DNA from: an uncultured Myxococcales bacterium
GTDB lineage: Bacteria > Myxococcota_A > Bradymonadia > UBA4248
Assembly: GCA_945875805.1 (NCBI GenBank)
Contig: CAMCLY010000001.1
Coordinates: 197 to 64,196, forward strand
Direction: 5' to 3'
DNA: 64,000 bases
Numbering within the stretch: the stretch's first letter is position 1; each line of letters starts with the position of its first letter. Below, piece by piece: positions 8,747 to 38,893 of the stretch. Under the pieces are notes generated by a model that did not search any database, was not told where the DNA came from, and was given only the letters and a program-made list of their open reading frames with translations. Position numbers and translations under genes: made by a program.

Positions 8747-8780
8747 ATTTGGGGTTTGCGCATGATGCGCAAACCGGGCG

Positions 8781-19378: not shown

Positions 19379-19380
19379 GA

Positions 19381-21599: not shown

Positions 21600-21835
21600 G
21601 TTTTTTCCACGGGTTCAGGATATGTCAAAAAACGGGGCGTATTAAGTGCGATCGACGCGCAAATGCAAGTTTTTTACGTTCGCCGCCGACATGGCACGCA
21701 CACGTAAGGAAATAGAATTTGGGCGGGCATTATTCCGACCGGTCGCCGCCTCATGAAACGTGAAAAGGCCACGCAGCATGACACCGCGCGGCCCTTCTCC
21801 CGCATCTCAGGGAAAAATCCCAAAACCATGAACGC

Positions 21836-22630: not shown

Positions 22631-22869
22631 GGAAATGCCTCATCCATTGCGAGCGCATTCGCGCCCTATCTATATCAAATTCTTAAATCCAGAAATTCTG
22701 CGACCAGAACCGCGGAGAACAACCCCCGCACGGAATGCGTCCGGCCCGGTCGGCCAGGCCCCTATGTCAATAATCGCGCCAGATCGCCTGTTGGGCAAAA
22801 TTTTTTTTAAACCTTCCACCACATCCTCACGAACCTTATGCTCAGTGGAAAGCCGCATTTCTTTGGGCT

Positions 22870-22990
22870 GGTGGGGGAAGTGTCCCCCCAACGCCGCTAT
22901 TTGCCTGCGGCAAATACGCGTCGCCCCCCTCGCCTCTCCCCCCGGCCCCCTCTCCAGCGGAGAGGGGGAGAAACGCGTCACCCGGGGGCT
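22870..22990. repeat. Composite intergenic repeat, copy A. It comprises the G5/C6 hairpin GGGGGAAGTGTCCCCCC, a REP hairpin GCTATTTGCC-tgc-GGCAAATACGC, a C-rich tract, and the hairpin CTCTCCagcGGAGAG.
   Basis: It is near-identical in layout to 55636-55745 (copy B). The distal hairpin has compensatory changes. Confidence 0.7.
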
Positions 22991-23037
22991 CGTCTCAAAA
23001 AGCCATCGAGCCATAAACCAAATCCCAGAGGGCGGAT

Positions 23038-23068
23038 ACAAAAAGGGCGACCCTTTGGGCCGCCCTTA
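23038..23068 (-). terminator. Rho-independent terminator of ino1.
   Basis: On the minus strand GGGCGGCCC-aaa-GGGTCGCCC is followed by UUUU, immediately after the stop at 23111. Confidence 0.45.
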
Positions 23069-23110
23069 AAAGTGTCACCTGCTTGCGCCGGTTTGAAAAA
23101 AAGTGGAGTA

Positions 23111-24430
23111 CTATTTATCCTCTTCGGCGTAGTAGTCCAGACCGAGGTGCGTGATCAGCTCTTCGCCCATGATGTAACGAAGCGTGTTCTTGTACTTCGT
23201 CTTCTGGATGAAGAGATCGTGCTCCGGATAAAGACCTTCGCGGCACTGCGGGCTCTTGAAGAAGAAGGACAGCCATTCCTGGATGCCATAAAAACCACAG
23301 CGTTGCGCCAGATCCATCGAAAGCGCAATGTCAAGCGCGACGGGAGCCGCAAGAATGGAGTCACGGCAGAGGAAGTTGATCTTGATCTGCATCGGATAGC
23401 CAAGCCAGCCAAAAATATCGATGTTGTCCCAGCCTTCTTTGGCATCACCGCGAGGCGGATAATACTCAATGCGGACTTTGTGATAGTACTTGCTGTAAAG
23501 ATCCGGGAAGGTCTTGCCGTCGAGAATGTGCTCGATAACCGAAAGTTTGGACACTTCCTTGGTCTTGAACGAACCCGGATCGTCGAGAACTTCGCCGTCG
23601 CGGTTGCCGAGAATGTTCGTCGAAAACCAGCCGTTGAGACCAAGACAACGGGCGCGAAGTCCAGGCGCGACGATCGTCTTCATCAGCGTCTGGCCCGTCT
23701 TGAAGTCTTTGCCCATGATGGCGACTTTTTCGCGTTTGGACAGCTCGACGATCGCGGGAATGTCCACCGTCAGGTTCGGGGCTCCGTTGGCATAAGGCAC
23801 ACCGCTCGAAATCGCCGCATACGCATAAATCATCGACGGAGAAATACGAGGATCGTTGTCCTTCATCGCTTTTTCAAGCGCCGCCACGCTCTGGTGGCAT
23901 TCCTCGCACGGCGTGTAGCATTCCGTCGAACCACACCAAAGCATCAACAGACGATCACAGCCATTGTCGGCTTTGAACTTCGCAATGTCGTCCTTCACCA
24001 TCTGGACGAGATCCCACTTCGTCGGCGCCGATTTCGCGTGCTTGACTTCGAGATTGTGGCAGTAGTTGTGATCAAATACCGCGTCCATCGGCTTGATCGC
24101 TTCCAACTGCGCACGGATCGGATCGAGATGCTTGTCTTCGAGAACGCCAGAGCGTTTGCATACTTCGTACGCATTCTCACCATGGATGTCCCACGCCCCA
24201 AAAACGATGTCCTTGAGCTCCGTAAGCGGGACAAAATCCTTGATAAGGGGATTGCGGTTTTCCGTCCGTTTGCCAAGGCGGATGCGTCCCATCTGTGTCA
24301 CGGAGCCAATCGGAAGCCCGTTGCCCGCCAACACGTCAAACACGCCGGCGATCATCGTCGTCGACACCGCACCAAGACCCGGAATGAGAATACCCAATTT
24401 GCCATTTGCTGGTTTGACTGTTACTGCCAT
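23111..24430 (-). CDS. ino1: myo-inositol-1-phosphate synthase.
   Basis: The 439-aa ORF has MIPS core motifs (GLGAVSTTMIAG NAD-binding, conserved ...SYNHLGNNDG-like and C-terminal regions) and the typical length. Confidence 0.85.
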   Translation of the reverse strand: MAVTVKPANGKLGILIPGLGAVSTTMIAGVFDVLAGNGLPIGSVTQMGRIRLGKRTENRNPLIKDFVPLTELKDIVFGAWDIHGENAYEVCKRSGVLEDKHLDPIRAQLEAIKPMDAVFDHNYCHNLEVKHAKSAPTKWDLVQMVKDDIAKFKADNGCDRLLMLWCGSTECYTPCEECHQSVAALEKAMKDNDPRISPSMIYAYAAISSGVPYANGAPNLTVDIPAIVELSKREKVAIMGKDFKTGQTLMKTIVAPGLRARCLGLNGWFSTNILGNRDGEVLDDPGSFKTKEVSKLSVIEHILDGKTFPDLYSKYYHKVRIEYYPPRGDAKEGWDNIDIFGWLGYPMQIKINFLCRDSILAAPVALDIALSMDLAQRCGFYGIQEWLSFFFKSPQCREGLYPEHDLFIQKTKYKNTLRYIMGEELITHLGLDYYAEEDK

Positions 24431-24737
24431 TGTCTTCTATGCCTTATAAAATAATGGTGCCCCGAAAAGTTCGGGGCGAGGAACCTGACACATCGTAACG
24501 TGCGATGCGCGGTAAACAAACTGGCGGTTGCGTCTAGCAAATTTTAGTCCAAGTTTCGATAAAACGTTTTTTTGCCGCGAGGCGCGCCCCCGTGACTATT
24601 TTTAACGCTTTAAAGGCCATTTTCGAGTATCACCGCCTCCGCGCGTCCTCTTCTGGATGCTATCATTATAATAATGTCTGCGATCCGGGATCGGCGTACA
24701 CACCGTTTCGCAGAAATTAGCACGTGTCTCGTCGCCG

Positions 24738-25466
24738 GTGTCCATGGAAGTGTTGGTGTCGATGTCTGCCCCCGCTGTATCCCCTGTTCTCCAGAGTGCG
24801 TCAGGTGAACGCTCATTGCCAAAGTCTGACGACCGCCTGACGGTCGTCCCCGTCGGAACCCCGACGTCGCCATTTTATGTCTATATCTATGCGGACGTCC
24901 TCGACGAACTGCGTTTTAACGCGACTTCCCGCGCCGCGCGCGGGATGCTTCTGGGGGCCTTTCATCCCTTTTTTGTCTTCGGGCCAATCGCGTTCGATGA
25001 CAAAACATCCGACGGGCAGGGAAAAATCACTCCCCAAACGGATAATCCTCCCCCCACTGTGGATAAAACACAGGACACCCCCGCGAACGACATTCCTGCC
25101 GAAAAAAAACTTCCCACCTGCAACGGCTATGTCGAAATCACCGCGTTCAGGGATGTCTTTTCGACTTCCGACGCCTTGGATTACGCCGGTTATCTGCGGC
25201 GTATCCGCAATTTCAGAACCTCCGACACCGACGAGGTCGTCCTGGGCGCTGTGGCCATGGGGCAGGGCGTCTCGGAGCTCTCGCTCGAAGACCTCATGCT
25301 CCAGAGAAGCTATTTTGCCAGACCCTACCAGGTCGCTCTCTTTGTCGATTCCGACCAGGAGGCGCCATGTCTTTACTGGCTCGATGAGGACGGCAATTTC
25401 GTTCGGACGGGATATTTTGTCGTCACCGCACGCGACAATCCCGATTCCCGCGAGACCAACCCATAA
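24738..25466 (+). CDS. Hypothetical protein. The start is uncertain (GTG at 24738 or ATG at 24744).
   Basis: The 242-aa ORF has strong GC3 bias in this frame. No motif was recognised. There is no clear RBS. Confidence 0.4.
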   Translation: MSMEVLVSMSAPAVSPVLQSASGERSLPKSDDRLTVVPVGTPTSPFYVYIYADVLDELRFNATSRAARGMLLGAFHPFFVFGPIAFDDKTSDGQGKITPQTDNPPPTVDKTQDTPANDIPAEKKLPTCNGYVEITAFRDVFSTSDALDYAGYLRRIRNFRTSDTDEVVLGAVAMGQGVSELSLEDLMLQRSYFARPYQVALFVDSDQEAPCLYWLDEDGNFVRTGYFVVTARDNPDSRETNP

Positions 25467-25727
25467 AATCTCTTCTCCGTGCCTTCAATGGGCTCCCACC
25501 TCTTTTAACCCTCACGGATAAGCGAGATGTGATACCCAATGTTCTGGCCAAAATCTGAGCCCGCCATCAAAGCGCACACCAGAACGCAAGCTGCCGTCAG
25601 AAATGAGAACACCGCGTTCAAGCCGTTGTCACGTCTCGTTTACAGGTATATACAGCAGGTCTTCAATTCTCAGAGGTGCTTTTGCCGGCACCGACGTTTC
25701 AAATAAACAAAAACTCATAGAGTAACC

Positions 25728-27023
25728 ATGACAGAAATCATCGATGTATACGCGCGCGAAATTCTCGATTCCCGTGGCAACCCGACCATAGAAGTCGATG
25801 TCACTTTGGCCGACGGCTCCAAAGGACGCGCCAGCGTGCCGTCCGGTGTTTCGACCGGGATTCATGAAGCCGTCGAACTGCGCGACAAGGACATCAAGCG
25901 TTACGGCGGAAAAGGCGTACACAAAGCCGTCGAAAGCATACGAAACATCATTGCTCCGGAGATCAACGGCATCGACGCGACCGAACAGGATCTCATCGAC
26001 CGCATGATGTGCCACCTGGATGACACCGAAAACAAAGCCATGCTCGGGGCCAATGCCATCCTCGCCGTTTCCCTGTCGGTCGCCAAGGCGGCCGCCGAGA
26101 GCCTCGAAATGCCCCTTTACCGTTACCTGGGCGGCGTGCAGGCAAACAGTCTGCCCGTCCCACTGTGCAGCCTTATCACGGGCGGACCGCATGTCGACAA
26201 CGACCTCGACATTCAGGAGTTCGCCATCGCGCCCGTCGGGTTGCCGACGTTTTCGGAGGCCATCCGCGCTTCAAGCGAAGTCGCTCACGCCATGCGGACC
26301 ATCCTCCACGAAAAGGGACTCTCCACCGCCGTCGTCGACGAGGGCGGGTTCGCCCCTCAGATCGCCCATGCCGCCGAAGCCCTCGACCTCATCATGGCCG
26401 CCATCACCAAGGTCGGTTACGTGCCGGGCAAAGAATTTTTCATTTCCATGGATTGCGCCGCCAGCGAATTCTATTGCCCCAACGACAAGGTTTATGAATT
26501 GCGCGGCGAAGGGCTCTCGCTCAAAAGCGACCAGCTCGCGGACTTCTATGACGGAATCTTTAAAAATTATCCCATTTTTGCCGTCGAAGACCCGTTCGAG
26601 CAAAATGACTGGAACGCATGGCGCGCTTATGCCGCCAGACACGAGGACATCCACGTGCTGGGCGATGACCTCTTCGTCACCAGCGCGCGCCTTCTGCAAC
26701 GGGGCATAGACCTCAACGCCGCCAACGGAATCGTCATCAAACCCAATCAGATCGGAACCCTCACCGAGGCCCTTGAGGCCGTCCGCATCGCTCAGAGAAA
26801 CGGCCTCATCACCGTGATCAGTCACCGTGCCGGCGAGACCGAGGACACCTTCATCGCCGACTTGTGCGTCGCCACCAACAGCCGGATCCTCAAAACCGGC
26901 GGTATCGCGCGCTCCGAACGCGTCGCCAAATACAACCAGCTCCTGCGTATCGAAGAAGCACTGGGCGACGATGCCCACTATGTCTCGCATTTCGCCAGAC
27001 GCCCAAAAATCATCGGGCGGTAA
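25728..27023 (+). CDS. eno: Enolase (phosphopyruvate hydratase).
   Basis: The N-terminus is MTEIIDVYAREILDSRGNPTIEVDV. The full 431-aa enolase is present. Confidence 0.95.
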   Translation: MTEIIDVYAREILDSRGNPTIEVDVTLADGSKGRASVPSGVSTGIHEAVELRDKDIKRYGGKGVHKAVESIRNIIAPEINGIDATEQDLIDRMMCHLDDTENKAMLGANAILAVSLSVAKAAAESLEMPLYRYLGGVQANSLPVPLCSLITGGPHVDNDLDIQEFAIAPVGLPTFSEAIRASSEVAHAMRTILHEKGLSTAVVDEGGFAPQIAHAAEALDLIMAAITKVGYVPGKEFFISMDCAASEFYCPNDKVYELRGEGLSLKSDQLADFYDGIFKNYPIFAVEDPFEQNDWNAWRAYAARHEDIHVLGDDLFVTSARLLQRGIDLNAANGIVIKPNQIGTLTEALEAVRIAQRNGLITVISHRAGETEDTFIADLCVATNSRILKTGGIARSERVAKYNQLLRIEEALGDDAHYVSHFARRPKIIGR

Positions 27024-27029
27024 AATATC

Positions 27030-28229
27030 ATGTCCTCGGAGTCCGCGTTGAACAGTTCCCCAGTCCATGCGGAGGGCGATGCCCAAAATGCATCGGCCCC
27101 CACAAATTCAGGGCAATGCCCCATGGACGAAAACATCCCTGTGGATGATTCGATCAGTCCGTGGCCGTGCATCCAGATGGCACAATACCCCGTGGCAGAC
27201 GACTGGGACGACGCGTTCCCGCTCGAACGCCTCTCCGGGTTTCAGTACGACCATATCAAAAATGCCGTGCACGCCCTGTTTCTCTCGCCCGCACTCGCAA
27301 AAACGTACGCGCAGTTGCGCGACTTTGCGTTTCAGCAGGGCGCATTCTCTAACGCCAACCGAATCGATCTCGAGTTTTTTCACAACATCCTCACCCACGA
27401 CTACCCATTCATTACCGGCAACAAACAGATCGAAATTCGCGCCGCATTTCAGATCGATTCCAAAAAGGCCCGTGGCATGGGACACCTGCGCGCATCCCAT
27501 TTCGGTCTTTATCGCGTCGGCGTCAGCGGTATGGGGTTTGCCGAACTGCACAGCCTGCTCGACGACGGCATCTGGCGCGCTTTCTTCGGGTTGGGCGAAT
27601 GTCCAACCACCGGCAGCGTCGTGTTTTGCCGACTCATGCCCGTCGGATTCGTCCCCAGATCCCTGGCCTATTCTGTCGTCGAACCCTGGGAAACCGTCGT
27701 CCCCGATCACGTCGATCACGTCGTCGCCATGTTTCGCAGGCAGTTTGACCTCTTCCGGACGCGCTTCCCAAAGGCCACCGTCAAGGCGTTTCTCAAGGCT
27801 TCCGCCTATCCCCTCTACGAATACATCGAGTCCTGTGAATTGCGCGCCGTCCTACAGAAACAGCTCGACACGGTAGACGACGAGTTGCACGCCACCACCA
27901 CCACGCTCATTTTTCCCGACGTCTCGCAAATGCCCAAAATCGACGCCCTCCCTCTCGCCTCTCCTGTCAAAGACCTCCAAGGCGTCGTGCAGAACCTCGC
28001 CACCGCCCCCATTTTCCAAGACGATGCACTTCCGGAAACCCTGCGCGAAGCCATCCTCTCCCGCGAAAAACGCGCCCTCGAAATCACGACGTTTGCTCGA
28101 CAAGCCGGAGCCAAATATGTCGAAGAATGCATTCAATCATTGCCAAAACGCACAAAGATTATTCAAAAAATTCGCATCCTCGACGAAAATGAGATGTATC
28201 GTGCCCTTCGACACTTGTTCTTGAGATGA
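27030..28229 (+). CDS. Hypothetical 399-aa protein that starts 6 nt after the enolase stop.
   Basis: It shows GC3-biased codon usage. No recognisable motif was found. It ends at its own terminator. Confidence 0.5.
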   Translation: MSSESALNSSPVHAEGDAQNASAPTNSGQCPMDENIPVDDSISPWPCIQMAQYPVADDWDDAFPLERLSGFQYDHIKNAVHALFLSPALAKTYAQLRDFAFQQGAFSNANRIDLEFFHNILTHDYPFITGNKQIEIRAAFQIDSKKARGMGHLRASHFGLYRVGVSGMGFAELHSLLDDGIWRAFFGLGECPTTGSVVFCRLMPVGFVPRSLAYSVVEPWETVVPDHVDHVVAMFRRQFDLFRTRFPKATVKAFLKASAYPLYEYIESCELRAVLQKQLDTVDDELHATTTTLIFPDVSQMPKIDALPLASPVKDLQGVVQNLATAPIFQDDALPETLREAILSREKRALEITTFARQAGAKYVEECIQSLPKRTKIIQKIRILDENEMYRALRHLFLR

Positions 28230-28281
28230 GGCCGCGCCACGCGATTTTCTTGTCACTGCGCGGCAAGGGTGGTAGGAGAAA

Positions 28282-28305
28282 GCGCCCGTTGTCGGGCGTT
28301 TTTTT
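28282..28305 (+). terminator. Rho-independent terminator (gcgcccg-ttgt-cgggcgc followed by T7).
   Basis: The hairpin plus T-run lie 50 nt after the stop at 28229. Confidence 0.55.
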
Positions 28306-28335
28306 GAACTCTAAGCTGTTTGTAGGAGAAGCAAA

Positions 28336-28518
28336 ATGGCAAAACCCGTAGTAGATACAAGCGTTTGTGTGGGATGTGGTTCGTGTGAAGCGGGATGTCC
28401 CGCCGAAGCCATCAAAGTCAGCGATGACGGCGTGGCCGTGATCGATGCCGACGCCTGCGTCGAATGCCTCGCATGCATCGACAACTGTCCCGCCGGCGCC
28501 ATCTCTGAAGGCGAATAG
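28336..28518 (+). CDS. Small 2x[4Fe-4S] ferredoxin.
   Basis: The 60-aa ORF has two CxxCxxCxxxCP motifs (CVGCGSCEAGCP, CVECLACIDNCP). RBS AGGAGAAG. Confidence 0.8.
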   Translation: MAKPVVDTSVCVGCGSCEAGCPAEAIKVSDDGVAVIDADACVECLACIDNCPAGAISEGE

Positions 28519-28532
28519 TTTTTTTTGTGGGG

Positions 28533-28609
28533 GGACGATGTCCCCCCACCCCCCCCCGAAATGCGAAAGCGCCCACGCGGCTTTGCCGCGCGGGCGCTTT
28601 CGCATTTCA
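28533..28609. repeat. Two strong hairpins 3' of the ferredoxin gene. The first is the G6/C6 hairpin GGGGGGACGATGTCCCCCC. The second is a 22-bp-stem palindrome GAAATGCGAAAGCGCCC(A/G)CGCGGC-aaag-GCCGCGCGGGCGCTTTCGCATTTC.
   Basis: Read directly. They probably act as terminators or RNA-stability elements. Confidence 0.5.
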
Positions 28610-28964
28610 TGAGGGGAGCAAGGTCTGAGGAATATTGGGGCTCTTGGTGATCGAACTCGCTTTTTGGGGCCGTATGACGAAGGAAATCAAGGGATCCTTG
28701 AATTTTCACACGTTCCACGGAAATGGAAAGCCTGAAAAAAACGGTTTTTGAAAATCTTTGTATTTATGAGAAGTGTAGAATAGAATGAGAAAATAACATT
28801 CTATCGATCGGATGATGTTTGTATAGGATTTTTAGAATCCTAAGTGATTGAAATTTGGAGGTTTTTTCTCCAATTTATCTTGCCATCTGCTATACTTGAT
28901 TGGGTGTTGCGCACATCTGGTGCGCATGGGATGACTTGCGTCGTCGATAAACGGAGACATCGAT

Positions 28965-31088
28965 ATGAAACAAAACAAACTTTTTATATGGGCATGGTTG
29001 CTCACGTGCGTCCTCTGGACGGGATGCGACGATTCGGTAACGGTCCGTGTGTCGTGTGAGGAGCAAAACGCAACGCTGTGTGTGAATAATAAAGTATATA
29101 TATGTATAGATCATACATGGCAGAATCCTCAAGATTGTGTGGCAGGGTGTGATGATGCAAAAAAGACATGTTTAGAAAAGTGCAAAGAAAGTCAAGAACG
29201 ATGCAGTGATGATAAAAATAATATAGAAGTTTGTCAATCCGATGGAACGTGGCAGTCACATCCGTGTGGTGAAGGGCAGAAATGCGATATTGAAAATGTG
29301 AGATGTGAGCCTGAATCGGATGATGTTGAATGTACAGAAGAAAATTATCAATGTACAGGAACAATACTACAGGTTTGCAAGTCTGGAAATTGGGAGACCA
29401 GTAAAGAGTGCAACGAAGGAGAAATATGTGATGAGGATTCGCAGTCTTGCATGAAAAAACCTGTAGAAAATAAATGCAGTGAAGAAGGAAAGATTCAATG
29501 TAGAAACGAAGGCGATTCGCATTATATGATGTGTAAGGGTGGAATATGGACTTTAGAAGAATGTCCAGAAGATGAGGCTTGTTTTGGTGATGATTGTCGT
29601 AAGAAGTGTGAACATGATGAAATAAATTCAGTGTGTCAAGGCGTAGATAAAATTGAAGTGTGTCATCAAGAGGGCTATTGGGACGAATTGCAGAAATGTG
29701 AAGCGGAAAAACAATGTATTGAAAATGATGTGGATGGAAAAAAAGTTGCGCGTTGTGTAGAAAAATGTGATCCTAACAAGGTTTTTCTTCAGTGTGCAAA
29801 AAATATATCAATAGGGGGTGAAAATATTGAGATGTTAGAGGTATGTTATAATGATAGGTTGCATTTGTTCGGTGAGAAATGTATGTATGGCTGTGATGAT
29901 GAGAAAATGAAATGTCGAGAATGTAAGCAAGGTGGCGGTTGCTTTATTTACGACACATTATCCATGTCTAAAGAAAAGGGCTACTATGCTTTTTGTAAGG
30001 ACGGTTATTGGTCGTATAGCGTGTGTGATCAAGATGGAGTGAGTTGTGATGAATACAAAAATGAATGTACTTGTGTGAGTGGGCAAAAAATATGTGCAGT
30101 GGATAAAAATGGTACAGATGTTATGTTGATGTGTGAAAATGAAAGATGGCGTTCGGTCTATTGTCCACAAAGTGAAAAGGGCGATGGATGTGATGGGGGT
30201 AGGAATAAGTGTGTGTCAATAGGAGATACGGCTGTATGGGGAGAATGTTCGCTTGATGATGTATATGGATATTATGGTAAAGATAATAAAAATTATTATA
30301 AAAAATGTAATACTCAAGGGATGTGGAAAGAAATAGAAACTTGCGAGGGTGATAATTGTGATAAAGTGACTTATAATGAATGTGTTTCAGGAAATTCATA
30401 TTGCGCAAAAGATGGTACTATTTTATCTTGTAATGGCGGTAAATTGCAAGTGGATGAAAAATGTGAAGCTTGTAGTGAGTATAATGATAATGACAAGGTA
30501 AAGGCTAAATGTGAAGGATGTAAAAACGGTGTATTTGGATGTGAAGATAATAAACTGTCTAGATGTGAGCATGGTGATTGGGTTGAGATGGATGAGTGTG
30601 AGGATGACTTGGTTTGTAATAGTGAAATAGGTGTTTGTCACAAGATGATTGAACGCAACTCTTGTGCGGCTAATGGGGGAATTGCGTATGCGCTCCTTTT
30701 GGATAAAAATTCTGATCAAAAACAAATAATCCAGTGTGAAAATAAATGTTATGTGTATGATGATAATCAATCGGCGGTGGCATGTGATAAGGATTCTCTT
30801 GGGAATTATGCTTCTCTGGATGGAGACGGTGTGTGGCGGGTTAAACATCCATATGCAATAGAAATAACATGTCCTAACGAAGTTATCACCACGGATTGGT
30901 ATAGATGTTCTCTTTTTAATGAAAACTTTAAATGTATAGAAGGTCGTTATCAATGTGGTCAGAATAATAGTGTAGAATTGTGTGTTGGGGAATCTTGGAG
31001 ATCCGAATATCAAAATGTCGGAACCTGTCCTAAAGGAACAAGGTGCGATGATTCTGGCAACTTCGTCCGATGTGTGCCAAATGACTAA
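28965..31088 (+). CDS. Cys-rich repeat lipoprotein (Myxococcus-type cysteine-rich repeats). The gene body is strongly A+T-rich.
   Basis: The lipobox is MKQNKLFIWAWLLTCVLWTGC. The 707-aa protein has about 90 Cys in recurring C..G.C...C motifs. The nucleotide composition switches from GC-normal (the first roughly 120 nt) to A+T-rich for about 1.9 kb. Confidence 0.7.
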   Translation: MKQNKLFIWAWLLTCVLWTGCDDSVTVRVSCEEQNATLCVNNKVYICIDHTWQNPQDCVAGCDDAKKTCLEKCKESQERCSDDKNNIEVCQSDGTWQSHPCGEGQKCDIENVRCEPESDDVECTEENYQCTGTILQVCKSGNWETSKECNEGEICDEDSQSCMKKPVENKCSEEGKIQCRNEGDSHYMMCKGGIWTLEECPEDEACFGDDCRKKCEHDEINSVCQGVDKIEVCHQEGYWDELQKCEAEKQCIENDVDGKKVARCVEKCDPNKVFLQCAKNISIGGENIEMLEVCYNDRLHLFGEKCMYGCDDEKMKCRECKQGGGCFIYDTLSMSKEKGYYAFCKDGYWSYSVCDQDGVSCDEYKNECTCVSGQKICAVDKNGTDVMLMCENERWRSVYCPQSEKGDGCDGGRNKCVSIGDTAVWGECSLDDVYGYYGKDNKNYYKKCNTQGMWKEIETCEGDNCDKVTYNECVSGNSYCAKDGTILSCNGGKLQVDEKCEACSEYNDNDKVKAKCEGCKNGVFGCEDNKLSRCEHGDWVEMDECEDDLVCNSEIGVCHKMIERNSCAANGGIAYALLLDKNSDQKQIIQCENKCYVYDDNQSAVACDKDSLGNYASLDGDGVWRVKHPYAIEITCPNEVITTDWYRCSLFNENFKCIEGRYQCGQNNSVELCVGESWRSEYQNVGTCPKGTRCDDSGNFVRCVPND

Positions 31089-31298
31089 TGCGTTGTGTCA
31101 AAAGGTTTGGCGACACATTGCGTCATGTGACTGGGAGAAAGCATCAGCGAGTGTGTTTGCGTTCAGATGGGTGGGGGCGTGGAGATACATTTTATGATAT
31201 TTGCAACATTTGGGAGGGGTCGCTATAGTGAAAGGAGTTTTTTACGGGCGCCTGTATGGGGCTCGTGATCGTCATGTATTTTGATATATGGAGGAATT

Positions 31299-33629
31299 AT
31301 GCGTTCTTATAAGATGGCTTTTGTATTGGCGTGCATGGGTCTTGCGGGACTGGCGGGGTGCAGTGAGGACTCGGTGGGTCTTGTCCTCAAGTGTACGCCG
31401 GGTGTGACGAAGTGTGAGAATAACACGCTTTCGATTTGTCTGGCGACGGCGTGGCAGGACATGGCCTGTCCTGCGGGGTGTAATGCGGCCGGTACGGATT
31501 GCGCCATTCCCGAGGGGGTCGAATGCGTGGTGACGCAGTGCAAGGATGATTCGACGCTTGCGGTCTGTACGGATGGCAAACTTTCGTTGCAGAAGTGTCC
31601 CAATGGGTGTCAGGGGTTTGCCTGTACCGAAGCGCCAGTGACCGAGTGTGAGGCGGGGGCCAAGAAATGCAGTGAGGACGGCAAGGGCGTGGCCGTGTGC
31701 GGCGTGGACGGCAAGTGGGGGAGTGTCACGGCATGTGAGGGCGATCTCGTGTGCGATCCTGTCACGGCGGAGTGCAAAGGTGGCGAGGTGACGCCGGAGT
31801 GTGAGGCGGGGGCCAAGAAATGCAGTGAGGACGGCAAGGGCGTGGCAGTGTGCGGCGAGGATGGTGCGTGGGGTGACGCTGTGGCGTGTGAGGGCGATCT
31901 CGTGTGCGATCCGCTGAGCAAGGAATGCAAAGACGCCGGTTCGGTGGCCGAATGTGCGCCTGGGGCCAAACAATGTGCCGTCGAGAGCAATGGCGTCGTC
32001 GTCTGTGGCGAGGACGGCAAGTGGGGGAGTGTCACGGCGTGTGAGGGGGATCTCGTGTGCGATCCTGCCACGGCGGAGTGCAAGAATGGCGAGGTGACGC
32101 CGGAGTGTGAGGCGGGAGCCAAGAAGTGCAGCGATGACGGCAAAGCCTCCATTGTCTGTGGTGAAGACGGCGTGTGGGGTGAACCCTCCACCTGCGATAT
32201 TGGCATGGCATGCGATGCCGCATCGGGGGAATGCAAGGCGGTGGTCGAACCACTCTGTGCCAAAGGCGAACTCAAGTGCAGCGATGATCACCAGAACCTC
32301 CTCGTCTGCAATGAAGCGGGCGACGGATGGGCGGAAGAGAAGAAGTGCGATAGAGATCAAAAGTGTCTTGTTGTGGAAGGCGTTGCGCAGTGTGTCAAGG
32401 CCGACTGTGTGCCTGGCCAGACGCAGTGTGCGGACGACATCTATCTCCAGACATGTGATGCAAACGGCAAATGGGCCAAGTCCCTGTGTCCGGACACGGC
32501 GGGCAAATGTGCCGTTATCGATGACGTGGCACAATGCGTCCAGTGCGCGCCGGGCTCGCAGCAGTGTGTCGATGATTCCAACATCAAATATTGTGGCGAC
32601 GACGGCAAATGGAGTGAGATCGAAGCATGCCCGTCGAATGGCCGGTGCGACACCAAGAAGAATGTGTGTACCTGCAATAACGGTGGCTACAACTGCACGG
32701 CATCGGGCGACTTCCAGGTTTGTGAGAACAGGGTGTACAAGACGGTAGAGCAGTGCGGCAGCAAGGAGGCATGCAGTACTTCCATAGACGCGGGTAAGAA
32801 TGTCTATCCCGGTTGTGTCTGTACGCCGAAGATTGGGGACAAGGCGGCCGAAACGCGATGTAACGAAGACAAATCCGGCATTCAGATATGCGAGCTCAGA
32901 ACGCTGAGTTATTATAACCAGTATACGCGCTGGGTTGACGGCGAATCCTGTGACGGTGGCGCCTGCATGATGGGCGAGGACAAGGTTGCGTATTGTTCGT
33001 GCAGTGACAATGATGTGCGTTGTCAGGCGCAGGATAAGGGCACGTCTCTTGAGTATTGTTATCTTGGAAAATGGCTTGAGGTCACGACGTGCAAAAGGGA
33101 GGCGGACTTTACCAATTCCTGCAATGCCGAGATCGGTGCATGTGTGAGCCAGTGCAAGATTATATCGTCCTCTTTGATACCTGGAGCTAGCACACCCGAG
33201 AGGACGTGCTCAGGCAATACGCTCATGACGTGTGAAAACGGCATCTTTGTGGCGCAGGAATGTGAGAACGGGTGTACTTTGTTGGGTTTAGGTTTGAGTG
33301 CGCAATGTAGAGACGAAGAAGTGACGTGTTCGGCTATCAATATCGGCAAAGGGCTGTGTCATGAAGACGGCAAAGGGTACAGTTTGTGCCAGAGCGCTCA
33401 TAGCGGTGAGATGACCGATATCGAATGCAAGGACAACGAAGTCTGTGTGAACGCTTCTCCACGGCCGGAAGTCGCCTGCGAGGCAAAAATGTGCGAAGAG
33501 GGCGCCTATTCGTGCACCGATGATGGAAAATCCGTGCGTCAGTGTGTCAATAATGCCTACAGTTTTGTGGGCACCTGCCCTGACAAGACGACGTGCGAAA
33601 AAGGCAAGTGCGTCCTTGCGATCAAATAA
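31299..33629 (+). CDS. Cys-rich repeat lipoprotein. It is a GC-normal paralog of the preceding gene.
   Basis: The lipobox is MRSYKMAFVLACMGLAGLAGC and GGAGG lies upstream. It has the same N-terminal architecture as the 28965 gene. It contains 4 x 51-aa internal repeats. Confidence 0.7.
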   Translation: MRSYKMAFVLACMGLAGLAGCSEDSVGLVLKCTPGVTKCENNTLSICLATAWQDMACPAGCNAAGTDCAIPEGVECVVTQCKDDSTLAVCTDGKLSLQKCPNGCQGFACTEAPVTECEAGAKKCSEDGKGVAVCGVDGKWGSVTACEGDLVCDPVTAECKGGEVTPECEAGAKKCSEDGKGVAVCGEDGAWGDAVACEGDLVCDPLSKECKDAGSVAECAPGAKQCAVESNGVVVCGEDGKWGSVTACEGDLVCDPATAECKNGEVTPECEAGAKKCSDDGKASIVCGEDGVWGEPSTCDIGMACDAASGECKAVVEPLCAKGELKCSDDHQNLLVCNEAGDGWAEEKKCDRDQKCLVVEGVAQCVKADCVPGQTQCADDIYLQTCDANGKWAKSLCPDTAGKCAVIDDVAQCVQCAPGSQQCVDDSNIKYCGDDGKWSEIEACPSNGRCDTKKNVCTCNNGGYNCTASGDFQVCENRVYKTVEQCGSKEACSTSIDAGKNVYPGCVCTPKIGDKAAETRCNEDKSGIQICELRTLSYYNQYTRWVDGESCDGGACMMGEDKVAYCSCSDNDVRCQAQDKGTSLEYCYLGKWLEVTTCKREADFTNSCNAEIGACVSQCKIISSSLIPGASTPERTCSGNTLMTCENGIFVAQECENGCTLLGLGLSAQCRDEEVTCSAINIGKGLCHEDGKGYSLCQSAHSGEMTDIECKDNEVCVNASPRPEVACEAKMCEEGAYSCTDDGKSVRQCVNNAYSFVGTCPDKTTCEKGKCVLAIK
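31644..32255 (+). repeat. A 4 x 153-bp in-frame tandem repeat (ECEAGAKKCSEDGKGVAVCGxDGKWGSVTACEGDLVCDP.TAECK.GEVTP) inside the Cys-rich lipoprotein gene.
   Basis: Unit starts at 31644, 31797, 31950 and 32103 were read directly. Copies 1/2 and 3/4 are nearly identical at the nucleotide level. Confidence 0.85.
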
Positions 33630-33750
33630 CGCGAGCGTGTGACGCGTTTTCAAGAGGCCTTCTTTTCGGAGAGGGCCTTTTTTTTGAGTGCTTCCGGGGT
33701 GGGGTTTGTGTGGGGCCGCCCTTTGCGCGAGGCGCATACGGGCCGGCCGC

Positions 33751-33846
33751 GCGGTCTATGCTTTGGCATACGCCCGCGCATTTTTCTGTGTGTCGGCATC
33801 ACCAGAGGGATTGGGCGAGCGTATCGGCCGCGCCGATAGCTCGCCC
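33751..33846. repeat. Two REP-like hairpins (GTCTATGC-tttg-GCATACGC and GCGAGCGTATCGGCC-gcg-CCGATAGCTCGC) upstream of dnaK.
   Basis: The inverted repeats were read directly. Confidence 0.7.
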
Positions 33847-34032
33847 GGGGCGCGCGTATTGGGCACCGGAGGTGTCCCAAAAGCGCCCCCCACAAAAAAC
33901 GCAAAAAAAATTTGCCCTTACCGAACGGTGTTTACTCTCCCGGGCCAGTTGCGAGGCACGAAAAAAACGTGCGCAGTGATCATTACGGTCCGACGGGCCG
34001 TTTGCATATTTTATAAAAAAGGAGAGATTGAT

Positions 34033-35931
34033 ATGGGAAAAATCATTGGTATTGACCTTGGAACGACGAATTCTTGTGTAGCGGTTCTCGAAGGCAGCGA
34101 GCCGAAGGTGATCACGAACGAGGAAGGGGATCGGACGACGCCGTCGGTGGTGGCGTTTGACGACAAGGGCGAGACGATCGTGGGACAGTTTGCGCGTCGT
34201 CAGGCGACGATGAACTATGAGAACACGATTTTCAGCGCGAAACGCTTTATCGGGATGAAGTATTCGGAGCGTGCGGACGAGGCGCAGCACATGCCGTTCA
34301 AGGTGGTGTCGTTGGCGAATGGCGCGGCGGGGTTTGAGGCGCGTGGCAAACAGTACACGCCGCCCGAAATCAGCGCGAAGGTGTTGCAGAAACTCAAACG
34401 CGACGCGGAGAAGTATCTTGGGCAGCAGGTGACGGAAGCGGTCATCACGGTGCCGGCGTATTTCAATGACTCTCAGCGTCAGGCGACGAAGGATGCGGGG
34501 AAGATTGCGGGTCTGAACGTGCGTCGAATCATCAACGAACCGACGGCGGCGGCGCTGGCGTATGGTTTGGACAAGAAGAAAGACGAGACGATTGCCGTGT
34601 ATGACTTTGGTGGCGGCACGTTTGATATTTCGATTCTCGAAGTGGGTGACAATGTCGTGGAAGTCATTTCGACGAACGGCGACACGCACCTTGGCGGCGA
34701 CAACATCGACGAGCTGATCATCGACTGGCTGGTGAGCGAGTTCAAGAAGGACAGCGGGATCGATGTGAGCAAGGACAAGATGGTGTTGCAGCGTCTGCGC
34801 GATGAGGCCGAGAAGGCGAAGAAAGCGCTCTCGACGATGACGACGACGAACATCAACCTTCCGTTTTTGACGGCGGATGCGACGGGTCCGAAGCATTTGA
34901 ATGTGAACCTTTCGCGTGCGCAGTTTGAGGACATGATTTCGGACATTGTGGCGAAGACGCTGGAACCCTGCAAGAAGGCGTTGCGCGATGCGAACAAGAC
35001 GGTGTCGGATATCGACGAGGTGGTTCTGGTCGGCGGTTCGACGCGTATTCCTCTTGTTCAGCAGGAGGTGGAGAAATTCTTTGGCAAACGTTCCAACCAC
35101 AGCGTGAACCCGGACGAAGTGGTGGCGCTGGGCGCGGCGATTCAGGGTGGTGTTTTGGCCGGCGATGTGAAGGACATTCTTCTTCTCGACGTGACGCCGC
35201 TTTCGCTGGGGATTGAGACGCTTGGTGGAGTGACGACCAAGCTCATTCCCCGCAACACGACGATTCCTACGCGCAAGAGCGAGGTTTTCACGACGGCGGA
35301 TGACAACCAGACGAAAGTCACGGTGCATGTGCTTCAGGGTGAGCGCGAAATGGCGTCGCAGAACCGTACGCTTGCCAAGTTCAATCTCGAAGGGATTCCG
35401 GCCGCTCCGCGTGGAGTGCCTCAGATCGAAGTGACGTTTGACATCAATGCCGACGGCATTGTGAACGTATCGGCGAAAGACAAGGCGACGGGCAAGGAGC
35501 AGCGTGTGACCATCGAGGCTTCCTCCGGGCTCAACCAGAGCGACATCGACCGCATGGTGAACGAGGCGAAGGAACACGAAGCGGAAGACAAGAAGCGTCG
35601 TGAAATCGTCGATGCCAAAAATGAACTCGATTCGTTCATTTTCTCGGCCGAAAAGAGCGTCAAGGACTATGGCGACAAGCTTCAGGCTTCGGACGTCGAG
35701 GCTTTGAACAAGGCGATCGAAGAGGCGAAATCCAAGAAGGATTCGGACGATCTCGACACACTCAAGGCGGCGAAGGAACAGTTGATGAATGCGTCGCACA
35801 AAATCGCGGAAGTGATGTATGCACAGGCCAATCAGCAGGGTGCTGGTGCGGCGCCTGGCGCTGCGTCCAACGCCGGTTCGGCCAAAAAAGACGACGATGT
35901 GATCGACGCCGAATTTGAAGACCAGAACTGA
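34033..35931 (+). CDS. dnaK: Molecular chaperone DnaK (Hsp70).
   Basis: The ORF begins [21 protein letters not shown]...DLGGGTFD...[18 protein letters not shown] lies 7 nt upstream of the ATG at 34033. The ORF-track N-terminal extension was rejected. Confidence 0.95.
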
Positions 35932-35962
35932 TCGGACAGGTGTTGAAAACCGTCTGTTCCAA

Positions 35963-35993
35963 TCCCCCGGGAGGCTCCCGGGGGATTTTTTTT
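35963..35993 (+). terminator. Rho-independent terminator of dnaK (CCCCCGGGAGgctCCCGGGGG followed by T9).
   Basis: The hairpin plus T-run lie 30 nt after the stop. Confidence 0.65.
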
Positions 35994-36034
35994 GTCAATA
36001 AAAAGTCACAAAGTGTCATAGGTTGTCAAAAATA

Positions 36035-36063
36035 TTGTCACTTTTGAAAAGTGGATGTATAAA
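36035..36063 (+). promoter_or_regulatory. Candidate sigma70 promoter TTGTCA-N17-TATAAA, preceded by five phased TGTCA direct repeats (35993-36040).
   Basis: The hexamers and spacing were read by eye. The site is about 85 nt upstream of the 36147 lipoprotein start. Confidence 0.35.
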
Positions 36064-36146
36064 TCATGATCGGTTGGTTTGGGCAAAGCAAAGTGTGATC
36101 AAACCTGCACAGCTGTGTGCCGTGCGCTGTATTTTATGAGGATTTG

Positions 36147-36539
36147 ATGTTGAAAAGAACAAGAACGTGGTTGTCTGTCTGTCTGGTGATGGGTTGTTTG
36201 TCGTGTTTCGGGCTGGTGTCGTGCAGTGACGACGACGAGGGATTTTCTGCCGAAGCGGTGTGCGAACACAAAGTGTCGTGTTTTGAGCTCGAAGAGGGCC
36301 GGGTTGAAGAAGAGTATAATTCCTGCGTAGCAGATGCGAAAGCGGGTGCTGAAGGCTCCAAGCTGATTGGGTGTTTGTCGGAATACAGTGCTGCGCAGAG
36401 ATGTATCGGTTCGGCGCCATGTTCTTCATTTGAACACACGGATGAAGAGGATTACGAAAATCATATTTGTTTTAAAGAATTCGATGCGTACATGCATTGT
36501 GTAAAGTCAAACATGCCTGACGACGCGTGGGCTGAGTAG
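36147..36539 (+). CDS. Small Cys-containing lipoprotein with 8 Cys, paralog 1.
   Basis: The lipobox is MLKRTRTWLSVCLVMGCLSC. It is followed by its own terminator. Confidence 0.55.
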   Translation: MLKRTRTWLSVCLVMGCLSCFGLVSCSDDDEGFSAEAVCEHKVSCFELEEGRVEEEYNSCVADAKAGAEGSKLIGCLSEYSAAQRCIGSAPCSSFEHTDEEDYENHICFKEFDAYMHCVKSNMPDDAWAE

Positions 36540-36561
36540 TGGTGATTTTTTGTGTCGACAA

Positions 36562-36589
36562 ACGCCCGGATTGATCCGGGCGTTTTTTT
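36562..36589 (+). terminator. Rho-independent terminator (cgcccggat-tga-tccgggcg followed by T7).
   Basis: Read directly. Confidence 0.6.
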
Positions 36590-36687
36590 GCGTTCGGGTG
36601 GCGATAGTTTTTGGTAAAAAAGCGTTGGCGCTGTGACAGGGATGAGGCATGGCGTGCAGGTGGATTGCGATTTTTGGAGGAGGCTTT

Positions 36688-37062
36688 ATGTCCAAGAAAA
36701 GAGGGCTTTTGTGGATGTCCGTGGCCGTGTTATCGTTATCCGGTATGCTGTCGTGTGGTGATAAGGGCGTTTCGTATGAAGCGTTTTGCGATTATGTCAC
36801 GTCATGTCGGATAGACGAGTTTGAAACCGATGCCGAATATGATGCGGCATTTCAGCAATGTATAGCGAAACAAACGCAATTGGATTCGGAAGCCCGCAGG
36901 GCTGGGTGCAAAGACGTTATCAAGGCGTTTAGGAAATGTATGTATGAATTGCCATGTGATGTGTATAAAGATGGTAAGAAGCTCGAATCGGAACTCTATG
37001 AATATTGCTATAATGAAAGTGTGGACTTCTCGATTTGTGCGTTGGAATATTCAAAGAAATGA
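36688..37062 (+). CDS. Small Cys-containing lipoprotein, paralog 2.
   Basis: The lipobox is MSKKRGLLWMSVAVLSLSGMLSC and GGAGGAGG lies upstream. The Cys spacing is conserved with the 36147 gene. Confidence 0.55.
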   Translation: MSKKRGLLWMSVAVLSLSGMLSCGDKGVSYEAFCDYVTSCRIDEFETDAEYDAAFQQCIAKQTQLDSEARRAGCKDVIKAFRKCMYELPCDVYKDGKKLESELYEYCYNESVDFSICALEYSKK

Positions 37063-37092
37063 TAGAATTTGTGAATGTTTATATTCATCTTA

Positions 37093-37116
37093 GCCCGGAA
37101 AGTTCCGGGCTTTTTT
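37093..37116 (+). terminator. Rho-independent terminator (gcccggaa-agt-tccgggc followed by T6).
   Basis: Read directly. Confidence 0.6.
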
Positions 37117-37227
37117 GTGCACGGGCGGCGGTGCCGAAATTTCGGTGAAACTGCGCTGGCTCTGTGGTAACATCCTCGCTGCTTTTGGATCGTTTGACAT
37201 TGTGGTTTGCATAAGGAGACTAGAGAA

Positions 37228-37962: not shown

Positions 37963-38004
37963 TCCCCTTTCCCTCGCCAGTGGTGAGGATAAACGAGGTC
38001 AGTC

Positions 38005-38802: not shown

Positions 38803-38835
38803 ATTTTCTAATAATAGATATTTGTGTGTCGATAT

Positions 38836-38866
38836 AAAAAAAGCTCCGTTTGACGGAGCTTTTTTT
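38836..38866. terminator. Bidirectional terminator within the 21-bp perfect palindrome gtcgatataaaaaaagctccg / cggagctttttttatatcgac.
   Basis: The hairpin AGCTCCGtttgaCGGAGCT has an A-run 5' and a T-run 3'. It sits between convergent genes. Confidence 0.65.
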
Positions 38867-38893
38867 ATATCGACATGAATCTTAAATTAGAAT

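Follow-up and report, generated by a model that had tools for sequence, protein, structure and literature searches.

The lipoprotein gene at 28965-31088 of the window, by which we mean the whole 64,000-nucleotide stretch of DNA that was analysed, is probably a single-gene replacement island, in which at least three old allele lineages have been exchanged by homologous recombination in conserved ends and flanks, maintained by selection and made A+T-rich in place. The body of this gene exists as at least three allele classes, A (the one in the window), B and C; the length exchanged is 1.7-2.0 kb, and the bodies show no similarity to each other by blastn and 33-47% identity at the protein level. 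In other bacteria, replacement islands diversify surface structures that are exposed; the locus described here would be their single-gene counterpart in a gut member of the Bradymonadia. The features of the locus are collected in Table 1.

Table 1. Features of the variable lipoprotein locus and its surroundings (window coordinates).
Feature	Position	Strand	Basis or distribution
Ferredoxin gene, 60 aa	about 28335-28518		5' of the inverted repeat
Inverted repeat, 32-nt arms	28550..28616	+	repeat search and self-inverted blastn match
A+T-rich leader/promoter region, G+C 0.40	28640..28964	+	conserved in all allele classes
Conserved 5' coding end: signal peptide, lipobox (Cys21) and 9 more residues	28965..29054	+	identical in all alleles
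A+T-rich segment, G+C 0.39: modules 1-2 and start of module 3	29055..29339	+	common to A and B, not C
Allele-A-specific A+T-rich body, tandem six-Cys modules, GC3 0.27	29340..31013	+	no blastn similarity to B/C bodies
Conserved 3' coding end (…VGTCPKGTRCDDSGNFVRCVPND and stop), G+C 0.47	31014..31088	+	common to A and C (alignment)
3' untranslated stretch	31089..31151	+	common to A and C, replaced in B
Paralogous lipoprotein gene, 776 aa, 12 recognisable modules	31299..33629	+	G+C 0.569, GC3 0.65
153-nt (51-aa module) tandem repeats in the paralogue	31638..32182	+	repeat family D1
Dimorphic C-terminal part of the paralogue	32990..33629	+	two forms, about 50% protein identity

G+C in 200-nt windows was 0.32-0.41 across 28600-31100 and 0.55-0.65 to either side, and the lowest of the 64 1-kb bins were the two at 29001-31000 (0.389 and 0.368; the next was 0.466). 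The body (29055-31013) had a G+C of 0.371, compared with a mean of 0.574 (sd 0.027) in the other 2-kb windows. The A+T-rich island that the first-pass annotation had placed within the gene body was thus confirmed by the window counts (37% vs 57% G+C, z = -7.5), and codon counts bore out the dominance of TGT for cysteine (65 TGT, 13 TGC). The ORF is intact, codes for 707 amino acids including 78 Cys, and has a GC3 of 0.29; that of the adjoining genes is 0.65-0.74. Its ends, which had been described as GC-normal, were less A+T-rich than the body but only intermediate (G+C 0.50 and GC3 0.63 in the first 90 nt, G+C 0.47 in the last 75 nt), and they fall almost exactly on the allele breakpoints given below.

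The leader was A+T-rich with short hairpins, as had been noted: G+C at 28700-28899 was 0.32 and several local hairpins lie in 28640-28964. Its folding energy was not significant (z = -1.26), and Rfam searches of 28200-31400 gave only sub-threshold eukaryotic miRNA/snoRNA matches that were judged spurious; no credible family was found for the leader, since both of these matches fall outside it. The promoter and terminator scan was uninformative given the A+T-rich DNA. A role of the leader as origin of replication was ruled out because DnaA boxes are not clustered there. The leader is about 99-100% identical among alleles A, B and C in the alignment, with pi and dxy of 0.005-0.009. The inverted repeat upstream of it is likely the terminator of the ferredoxin gene; it also forms the left boundary of the locus.

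Comparison among strains showed that the allele of the window is not fixed and that the breakpoints are sharp. Allele C departs from the window directly after 29054 (breakpoints at 29054/29055 and about 31014); its representative L009 is 99.3% identical to the window over 28640-29054 and 98-100% through dnaK and further. The breakpoints of allele B lie at 29339/29340 and about 31152: as far as 29339, L005 and L007 match the window at 99.7% identity, and beyond it they bear no relation to it, allele B has its own stop codon and tail, and the identity of L005, 99.3% over 24001-29339, resumes at 31152 and is 99.6% from there on. Between their conserved ends, L005 and L009 have no detectable nucleotide similarity to the window. 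The leader and the first 90 nt of the gene are therefore common to all strains and the last 75 nt to two of the three alleles, and by alignment the segment 29055..29339 reads as a mosaic junction of A and B. Every allele is an intact ORF, so a pseudogene remnant was not what we found. With three bodies between identical ends in one species, the proposal that the body had been replaced by recombination at conserved ends was borne out. Among 5.8 billion protein clusters, only these three alleles were found, in clusters of 54 (A), 4 (B) and 46 (C) member sequences; in a profile search they scored 825-1184 bits against each other and the next protein 148, and they are each other's closest relatives.

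The population sample consisted of contigs from many independent gut metagenomes, with 17 long haplotypes from independent assemblies and a number of shorter contigs; the source runs include SRR24140666, ERR5729256 and pig samples of PRJEB11755. The flanks of the 17 haplotypes were 99.2-99.6% identical to the window (one species), and in all 17, as in every shorter contig, a version of the locus was found between the ferredoxin gene and the paralogue and dnaK. Each contig carried one version, and a second copy was absent from the 64-kb window. The flanks were not differentiated by allele class: dxy between A and C was 0.002-0.007, about equal to within-class pi, even in the 500 nt adjoining the breakpoint, which indicates that alleles pass between genomic backgrounds by homologous recombination. 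Among class-A sequences 30 of 91 site pairs failed the four-gamete test, among class-C sequences 48 of 136, and allele A was linked to either form of the paralogue C-terminus. The 13 class-A sequences comprised five DNA haplotypes and the 10 class-C sequences three, from different samples and studies; class-B sequences were identical to one another, as were L009-L012, so that SNPs there could not be polarised. At 38814-39400, identity by blastn was 99.4-100%, apart from two stretches, each of about 70 nt, that did not align. When metagenomes were scanned for a conserved 24-mer, only one further contig was gained, which carries allele C, and a scan of genome contigs with the neighbouring 399-aa protein gave no match, the species being absent from the GTDB representatives. 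The nearest of these (L013, a Myxococcota MAG) has a DnaK 89% identical and no synteny at the locus, and in a more distant relative (L109) the ferredoxin gene is followed by a compositionally normal family member. One sequence of the class-A cluster is listed by NCBI under the name "Bradymonadia bacterium".

An abrupt composition change could also arise if a low-GC fragment had been mis-joined into a high-GC contig during assembly or binning, and that change is all that speaks for it. More than 17 contigs, drawn from different samples and sources (with name styles k141, k115, k127, NODE_, scaffold and Logan), have these same junctions, and the ORF runs unbroken over both of them. Independent replication of the junctions refutes such an artefact, whose probability we regard as negligible.

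The first-pass annotation had also raised surface-protein variation. Between the strains of a population it does occur, in the form of a polymorphism with several stable alleles, but we found no evidence of programmed switching within a genome. In Neisseria pilE/pilS, Borrelia vlsE and Treponema tprK, antigenic variation draws on silent cassettes (PMC8480903), and the likeness to our locus lies in a surface-protein gene with variable interior and constant ends. A variable body between conserved ends and the A/B junction at 29339/29340 could accordingly be read as the work of silent-cassette gene conversion, a retroelement or an invertible element. Unlike in those systems, however, donor cassettes were not found: searched by tblastn and blastn, the 64-kb window contained neither copies nor fragments of B or C, and 15 billion proteins yielded only pieces of the expressed alleles (P0005, P0008). 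Rather than a mosaic continuum, there are few discrete, stable classes across hosts and studies, with the few haplotypes per class given above. A template repeat and flanking inverted repeats are absent, and the leader points the same way in every contig. No template of a diversity-generating retroelement was seen either, parts of the body not being repeated in 28400-33700 or elsewhere in the window, and the within-class differences were mostly transitions of all kinds, not adenine-specific. Programmed variation is, on this evidence, very improbable.

The low G+C is not peculiar to the allele of the window. Alleles A, B and C alike have a G+C of 0.38-0.395 and a GC3 of 0.27-0.30, and their fourfold-site spectra are alike too (T>A>G>C in A and C, A≈T>G>C in B). 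Over 16 kb of flanking DNA, SNPs polarised by the rare allele comprised 108 GC>AT and 31 AT>GC changes, which gives an equilibrium G+C of 0.256 (CI 0.18-0.33) as estimated from 139 SNPs of metagenome assemblies whose polarity was set by rarity. In the bodies the ratio was nearer parity (22 GC>AT vs 15 AT>GC; Fisher p = 0.035). Hypermutation of the body was rejected because its pS does not exceed that of the flanks (0.0064 within class A, 0.0075-0.028 in the neighbours). Since the composition of the bodies corresponds to the mutational equilibrium of the species itself, a low-GC donor is not needed.

A donor of this kind, or a cassette that this strain had gained horizontally, was the origin first proposed for the island, and the data did not bear it out. 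Bodies imported from one or more low-GC organisms, recombined at the conserved ends and still carrying the unameliorated donor signature, would account for the 20-point drop in G+C and for a FYMINK of 0.24-0.27 vs 0.18 in the paralogue. Members of the module family are also found in proteins whose amino-acid composition looks, by eye, like that of lower-GC genomes (P0006, P0012 and others) and on contigs of 0.40-0.50 G+C (L093, L108). Furthermore, as the equilibrium of the host is itself A+T-rich, imported A+T-rich DNA would not ameliorate, so its persistence is no argument against import. Yet composition and fourfold-site spectrum are the same in all three alleles, and every allele-bearing contig has the flanks of the species itself, so that each allele is known only from its G+C-normal context. 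The alleles form one group with native signal-peptide and C-terminal ends, and crossing over by homology within a donor gene that is A+T-rich and diverged would be unlikely. Among 1.84 billion representative proteins, they are the sole full-length relatives of each other; neither a donor nor any closer homologue was found there, and protein cluster and profile searches gave no homologue in a foreign context. Atypical composition is the one mark of a horizontal island that the locus bears: it is present in all strains and not patchy, and mobility genes (integrase or transposase ORFs), a tRNA and flanking direct or other repeats are all absent from it. In addition, the G+C-normal tandem paralogue with the same module and the relative in L109 support, at the sequence level, a native family. 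We consider foreign origin unlikely.

A+T-richness might instead be selected, for example as the target of a nucleoid-associated silencer for bistable or conditional expression or as a brake on transcribing or translating a costly disulfide-rich protein. The identical composition of three unrelated bodies, with boundaries that match the coding body, and the A+T-rich, strictly conserved leader could be understood in this way. However, selection for A+T need not be invoked where composition equals the neutral mutational expectation, amino-acid usage is shifted as well, as mutation pressure predicts, and Bradymonadia are not known to have a xenogeneic silencer. This explanation appears improbable, more so than import.

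If the bodies became A+T-rich in place, as we favour, the trait would belong to all alleles and not to a recent import, and they would rest at the G+C toward which the mutation spectrum of the species tends, about 0.26. Elsewhere in the genome, selection or GC-biased gene conversion would keep synonymous sites at about 0.7 G+C, a force that may long have been ineffective in recombinationally isolated, fast-evolving allele lineages. Because recombination persists within classes, simple loss of biased gene conversion predicts only a partial drop in G+C; a fuller one would need interference from linked amino-acid selection or very weak codon selection. Divergence alone is no guarantee of A+T-richness, since the paralogue C-terminus is about 50% diverged and its G+C only slightly lowered (GC3 0.58-0.66). 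Tentatively, the locus could be seen as a natural experiment, in which three ancient, mutually non-recombining lineages decayed in place to mutational equilibrium (GC3 about 0.28), while DNA a few nucleotides off recombines freely and is kept at a GC3 of about 0.7. Frequency-dependent selection on a glycan-binding adhesin of a predatory gut bacterium may, on this view, have preserved the lineages even from one species to another.

Amino-acid change in the gene fits relaxed or diversifying selection. Between the window and L002 pN/pS was 1.13, and polymorphisms within classes were 41 nonsynonymous and 12 synonymous (pN/pS about 0.77, from small counts at 53 sites); in neighbouring genes pN/pS was 0-0.15. 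Cys residues were never polymorphic. The polymorphism may be kept by diversifying or frequency-dependent selection on a presumably exposed protein, for which phage, host immunity, prey or ligand specificity and self-recognition are candidate agents, and occasional crossovers inside the body yield mosaics such as that of A and B, which have 29055-29339 in common.

The downstream gene had been described as GC-normal and of the same architecture, and it is. The paralogue has the same six-Cys modules and is only 25% identical to the variable gene. The copy number of its repeats differs by strain, with products of 676, 727, 733, 776 or 778 aa (two modules are missing in L002). The two forms of its C-terminal part segregate independently of the upstream A/C class, and pi within class A at 33152-33651 was 0.18.

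Replacement-island loci typically have a lower G+C than the genome, and low-GC O-antigen and capsule loci sit between conserved genes. In enterobacterial flagellin, fliC, the conserved termini serve as recombination substrates and the hypervariable antigenic centre is swapped between lineages. Conserved ends and a variable centre are common to these loci and ours, which differs from them in coding for a lipoprotein of disulfide-rich modules, in the three alleles seen and in the 20-point G+C drop. No statement on low G+C was found in PMC7305143, on surface polysaccharide loci. The replacement islands of Pseudomonas aeruginosa include the O-antigen, pilA, flagellin glycosylation and pyoverdine loci, according to the passage of PMC7685784 that cites Kung, Ozer and Hauser (2010). 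As at our locus, they occupy the same place in the conserved core of every strain and the versions exceed ordinary allelic divergence. They have one version per locus, as each of our contigs does, and are credited to diversifying selection, which may act here too. Unlike there, what is exchanged here is the interior of a single ORF and the breakpoints fall within its coding ends, the host is an uncultured member of the gut Bradymonadia with an uncharacterised protein family, and composition quantitatively matches the mutational equilibrium of the host. A likeness nearer in taxonomy is TraA, a kin-recognition receptor of Myxococcales that is polymorphic between strains (PMC6372800, PMC3820747) and has a type I signal sequence, a PA14-like variable domain, a MYXO-CTERM tag and traB as partner (PMC6372800). 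Both are proteins of Myxococcota with cysteine-rich repeats and strong polymorphism within a species, and like TraA ours is probably at the cell surface. In contrast to TraA, our protein has a lipobox and no Pfam or NCBIfam match to PA14 or MYXO-CTERM, its gene neighbours the paralogue and dnaK instead of traB, and its whole body varies instead of a single domain.

Where DNA of low G+C lies in a high-GC genome, horizontal transfer is the routine inference, and this gene is a cautionary case: its low G+C is common to three unalignable alleles and stops within a few bases of the breakpoints. Composition-based metagenome binning or HGT detectors would mis-call it. In-place decay where recombination or selection cannot act becomes measurable here at one compact locus, with the G+C-normal tandem paralogue as internal control. 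If our reading is true, the low G+C of replacement islands would be a result of recombinational isolation and interference and not a mark of foreign origin, and forces linked to recombination would be what actively keeps this genome at its high G+C.

Lastly, the gene product begins with MKQNKLFIWAWLLTCVLWTG followed by the lipobox Cys, and its signal peptide and lipobox pattern identify it, on sequence grounds, as a bacterial lipoprotein, probably at the surface. It consists of at least 11 tandem six-cysteine modules. In a model of a single module, on which the fold comparison rests, the predicted fold resembles the CBM14/peritrophin-A chitin-binding domains (Der p 23, Avr4, tachycitin, chitotriosidase CBM14), with a similar all-beta module of roughly 45 residues and six cysteines; as in peritrophins, modules are arrayed in tandem. 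A CBM14-like fold would allow a glycan-binding adhesin or receptor. Unlike those domains, this is a bacterial lipoprotein with other Cys spacing and without sequence match in Pfam (CBM_14 included), NCBIfam or a PDB profile search with the module (E 0.18 or worse). Neither Pfam nor NCBIfam assigned a family to the two proteins or to alleles B and C, the sole match being sub-threshold (CBM_19, E = 0.046, 14.2 bits vs a cut-off of 20.1). The full-length AlphaFold model was poor (pLDDT 57) and its Foldseek matches meaningless (TM <=0.13), and the two-module alignment was out of register. The uncharacterised family of tandem CBM14-like lipoproteins is flagged as the most polymorphic surface feature of this little-known gut member of the Bradymonadia, and it is a candidate for what determines interaction with phage, host or prey. 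The N-terminus follows the pattern MKQNK-LFIWAWLLTCVLW-TG before the Cys, with Gly at -1, Thr at -2 and Trp at -3 of the lipobox; this Trp is atypical, the paralogue and family members having LAG, LSG and similar triplets before the Cys.

The A+T-rich island that the first-pass annotation placed inside one lipoprotein gene was clearly recovered. G+C content fell to 0.32-0.41 from ~28600 to 31100 vs 0.55-0.65 on both sides (200-nt windows), the 1-kb bins covering 29001-31000 were the lowest of the 64-kb window (0.389 and 0.368; the next, 0.466), and the gene body, with a G+C of 0.371, lay 7.5 sd under the average for the remaining 2-kb windows. This region is a single intact ORF whose product carries an N-terminal signal peptide and a lipobox (…VLWTG/C). 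GC3 was 0.29, vs 0.65-0.74 in enolase, the 399-aa gene, the downstream paralogue and dnaK, and the product was richer in FYMINK (0.27 vs 0.18) and poorer in GARP (0.16 vs 0.25) residues than the paralogue, which has the same module architecture and normal composition, as had been proposed, and only 25% identity. The gene ends, previously described as GC-normal, are less A+T-rich than the body but only intermediate (first 90 nt, G+C 0.50 and GC3 0.63; last 75 nt, G+C 0.47). The leader is also A+T-rich with local hairpins, as had been noted; it folds with an ordinary energy (z = -1.26) and has no credible Rfam family match. Apart from two homopolymer runs (see table), it is invariant between strains; these length differences could affect expression.

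The product of the A+T-rich gene had only four relatives among 5.8 billion protein clusters, three of them representing the allele classes A (that of the window), B and C and the fourth being a weak module-level match. A profile search returned the same four; when 1.84 billion representatives were searched exhaustively with an HMM, the sole additions were A and C fragments and similarity at the level of single modules to further large lipoproteins rich in Cys. Gene order on the B and C contigs is that of the window (enolase, hypothetical gene, ferredoxin, A+T-rich gene, paralogue, dnaK), and at the DNA level these contigs belong to the same species. Contig L005 (class B) is 99.3% identical to the window over 24001-29339 and 99.6% from 31152 on, and L009 (class C) is 99.3% identical over 28640-29054, 94.5% over 30920 to 37000 (blastn) and 98-100% from 31014 through dnaK, except for the variable C-terminus of the paralogue. 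Between their breakpoints, placed from alignments to within a few bases, neither has any nucleotide similarity to the window. C departs from A after 29054 and rejoins it at ~31014, so that both have the signal peptide with its lipobox and the last 23 codons in common. B has the first 375 nt in common with A, 285 of them A+T-rich; it departs after 29339, and its stop codon and its 3' tail, which reaches ~31151, are particular to it. The supposed GC-normal ends are the segments common to alleles, and the proposal that the body was swapped by recombination at conserved ends is confirmed by three alternative bodies between identical ends in one species.

With 14 more long contigs, 17 haplotypes were aligned over 19000-29054 and 31152-41100. 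In the upstream flank all were 99.2-99.6% identical to the window whatever their allele class, and A-C divergence in the flanks (0.002-0.007) did not exceed within-class diversity, even in the 500 nt adjoining the breakpoint. Furthermore, class A occurs with both forms of the paralogue's C-terminus, a second polymorphism 2 kb downstream, and pairs of amino-acid polymorphisms failed the four-gamete test within classes (30 of 91 in A, 48 of 136 in C). All these data indicate that the strains are one recombining species, in which allele bodies pass between backgrounds by homologous recombination and deep divergence is limited to the body. Classes A and C are each frequent, with 54 and 46 distinct sequences in their 90% clusters, and B is rarer (4). 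The surface-protein variation raised earlier holds at the population level, with alternative bodies among strains.

Other origins of the pattern were rejected. Local hypermutation would raise divergence in the body, which differs at 0.70% of sites from L002, a second class-A contig, vs 0.5-1.25% in the flanks, and synonymous divergence within class A (0.0064) is not above that of neighbouring genes. A retroelement target would have a repeat of some part of the body, and there is none; the sole inverted repeat over 28400-33700 is the likely terminator of the ferredoxin gene, which argues against an invertible segment; recurrence of the junctions in over 17 contigs, drawn from different samples and sources, speaks against an assembly artefact; and a classical genomic island does not fit a locus present in every strain and devoid of mobility genes. 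The search for silent cassettes suggested earlier (tblastn, blastn) found neither B nor C, whole or in part, within the 64-kb window and no extra fragments in public protein space, and the small set of DNA haplotypes (5 for A, 3 for C) is stable from sample to sample. In contrast to pilE-, vlsE- and tprK-type systems, the defining donor cassettes are absent here, in the window and among public proteins. The locus also recalls those flagellin genes whose centre varies between conserved ends, as well as low-GC O-antigen loci. It is probably a replacement island in the sense applied to P. aeruginosa, which occupies the same position in every strain with one version per locus, the versions diverging too far for ordinary alleles and being attributed to diversifying selection (PMC7685784). 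The unit here is smaller, the inside of a single ORF. Nor is the protein TraA, whose PA14-like domain, MYXO-CTERM tag and traB partner (PMC6372800) are all absent. This kind of island is already known; the gene represents an uncharacterised protein family in an uncultured lineage.

Regarding the A+T-richness itself, the three bodies are nearly alike in G+C (0.380, 0.389 and 0.395), in GC3 (0.27-0.30) and at fourfold sites (A 0.29-0.36, C 0.08-0.11, G 0.18-0.25, T 0.34-0.42). When rare variants (minor allele <=25%) were polarised over 16 kb of flanking alignment with a background G+C of 0.545, GC>AT changes outnumbered AT>GC changes (108 vs 31), implying an equilibrium G+C of 0.256 (binomial 95% CI 0.18-0.33), which equals the synonymous-site G+C of the bodies. 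Within the bodies the changes were nearer parity (22 vs 15; Fisher p = 0.035 against flanks), as should be expected for sequence near compositional equilibrium. Native mutation pressure is therefore enough to explain the body composition, and the low-GC source put forward in the first-pass annotation is both unsupported and unnecessary. Import from an unsampled low-GC relative, the main rival, is less probable; it has no positive evidence of any sort and is awkward to reconcile with the native, identical ends of the alleles and with their common composition. On this account, whatever keeps GC3 at ~0.7 in the rest of the genome would fail to act on the bodies, possibly because the allele lineages have long been isolated from one another in recombination, and selection at linked amino-acid sites may interfere in addition. 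Isolation is weakened as an explanation by the persistence of within-class recombination and by the paralogue's dimorphic C-terminus, which is ~50% diverged and only mildly G+C-depleted (GC3 0.58-0.66 vs 0.68). The main value of the locus is that it allows an unusually clean test of the way in which local G+C is set by recombination, selection and mutation bias; it also warns against taking compositional islands as horizontal transfer.

Both the A+T-rich gene product and the paralogue are built from a module of ~45 residues with six invariant cysteines (consensus xxCxxGxxxCx8CxxGxWx5Cx5CDx5C; 11 clean copies in allele A, 12 in the paralogue), and sequence searches of Pfam, NCBIfam and PDB gave no match. 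An AlphaFold model built on an alignment of the 23 modules themselves was confident (pLDDT 95) and showed five short strands; its fold-level resemblance to CBM14/peritrophin-A chitin-binding domains, which rests on the predicted structure of this small domain, suggests that the protein may bind glycans. Within classes, amino-acid polymorphism is plentiful (41 nonsynonymous vs 12 synonymous sites) and the cysteines are invariant, with pN/pS ~0.77 overall and 1.13 between the window and L002, vs 0-0.15 in neighbouring genes. This pattern fits an exposed scaffold with surface residues under relaxed or diversifying selection. The module family is native to the lineage, with members in two more distant relatives (L108, L109). 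Identity among these orthologues, and between them and the paralogue in the window, is only 27-38%, so that fast evolution is a trait of the entire family.

Of 185,579 species representatives, a Myxococcota MAG (L013) had the closest DnaK, at 89% identity, with every other hit at <=66%. The species is absent from the GTDB representatives, and a scan with the neighbouring 399-aa protein gave no match. One member of the class-A protein cluster is named by NCBI as from "Bradymonadia bacterium", and the gene-bearing contigs come from pig-gut and other gut metagenomes. In L013, the nearest catalogued species, there is no syntenic gene upstream of dnaK. The local minimum of cumulative GC skew beside the locus is probably not an origin of replication, since no DnaA-box cluster was found. 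Elsewhere in the window, a tandem-repeat ORF with an indel suggests repeat copy-number variation.

Features of the locus, its relatives and other parts of the window
Feature	Position (strand)	Observation
Skew minimum	~28000-28600	+ strand synonymous-site preference flips; fourfold C favoured in enolase and 399-aa gene (0.60), G in paralogue and dnaK (0.40-0.56)
Likely ferredoxin terminator	28550-28616	Inverted repeat
Leader	28640-28964	
Leader run	28735-28741	A7; A6 in L009
Leader hairpin TTGGAGG(T)nCTCCAA	28855-28873	Loop T6 in window, L002, L009; T8 in L005, L007 (allele B)
A+T-rich gene	28965..31088 (+)	707 aa, 78 cysteines
Body	29055-31013	
Paralogue	31299..33629	Called products 676, 727, 733, 776 or 778 aa
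Paralogue tandem modules	31638-32182	153 nt (51 aa); copy number differs among strains
Paralogue C-terminus	32990-33629	~210 aa; two forms, ~50% identical, reassorting freely with upstream allele class
Putative lipoproteins	36117-36539, 36649-37062	Neighbouring; 140 and 137 aa, several Cys each; G+C lowered, 0.44-0.49, GC3 ~0.5; no NCBIfam match
Repeat ORF	37207-37962	Tandem SNVTE(A/S) peptides; 54-nt indel in region, L009 vs window
Secreted protein, 185 aa	38894-39451 (-)	~38935-39010 and 39265-39335 (~70 nt each) unaligned, window vs L009; 99.4-100% identical outside
Second small A+T-rich island	46974-47405 (-)	G+C 0.36-0.42 over ~400 nt; coincides with 143-aa ORF, function unassigned, adjoining HAD-like gene
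L013 Cys-rich lipoproteins	2717-4138, 6561-9578	Same kind; one mildly G+C-depleted (0.48 vs ~0.54)
L108 family members	192-3802	Two in tandem
L109 family member	265-3394	Directly after ferredoxin; normal composition
P0001		98% identical; class A
P0002		47% identical over 56% of length; class B
P0003		33% identical; class C
P0004		Weak module-level match
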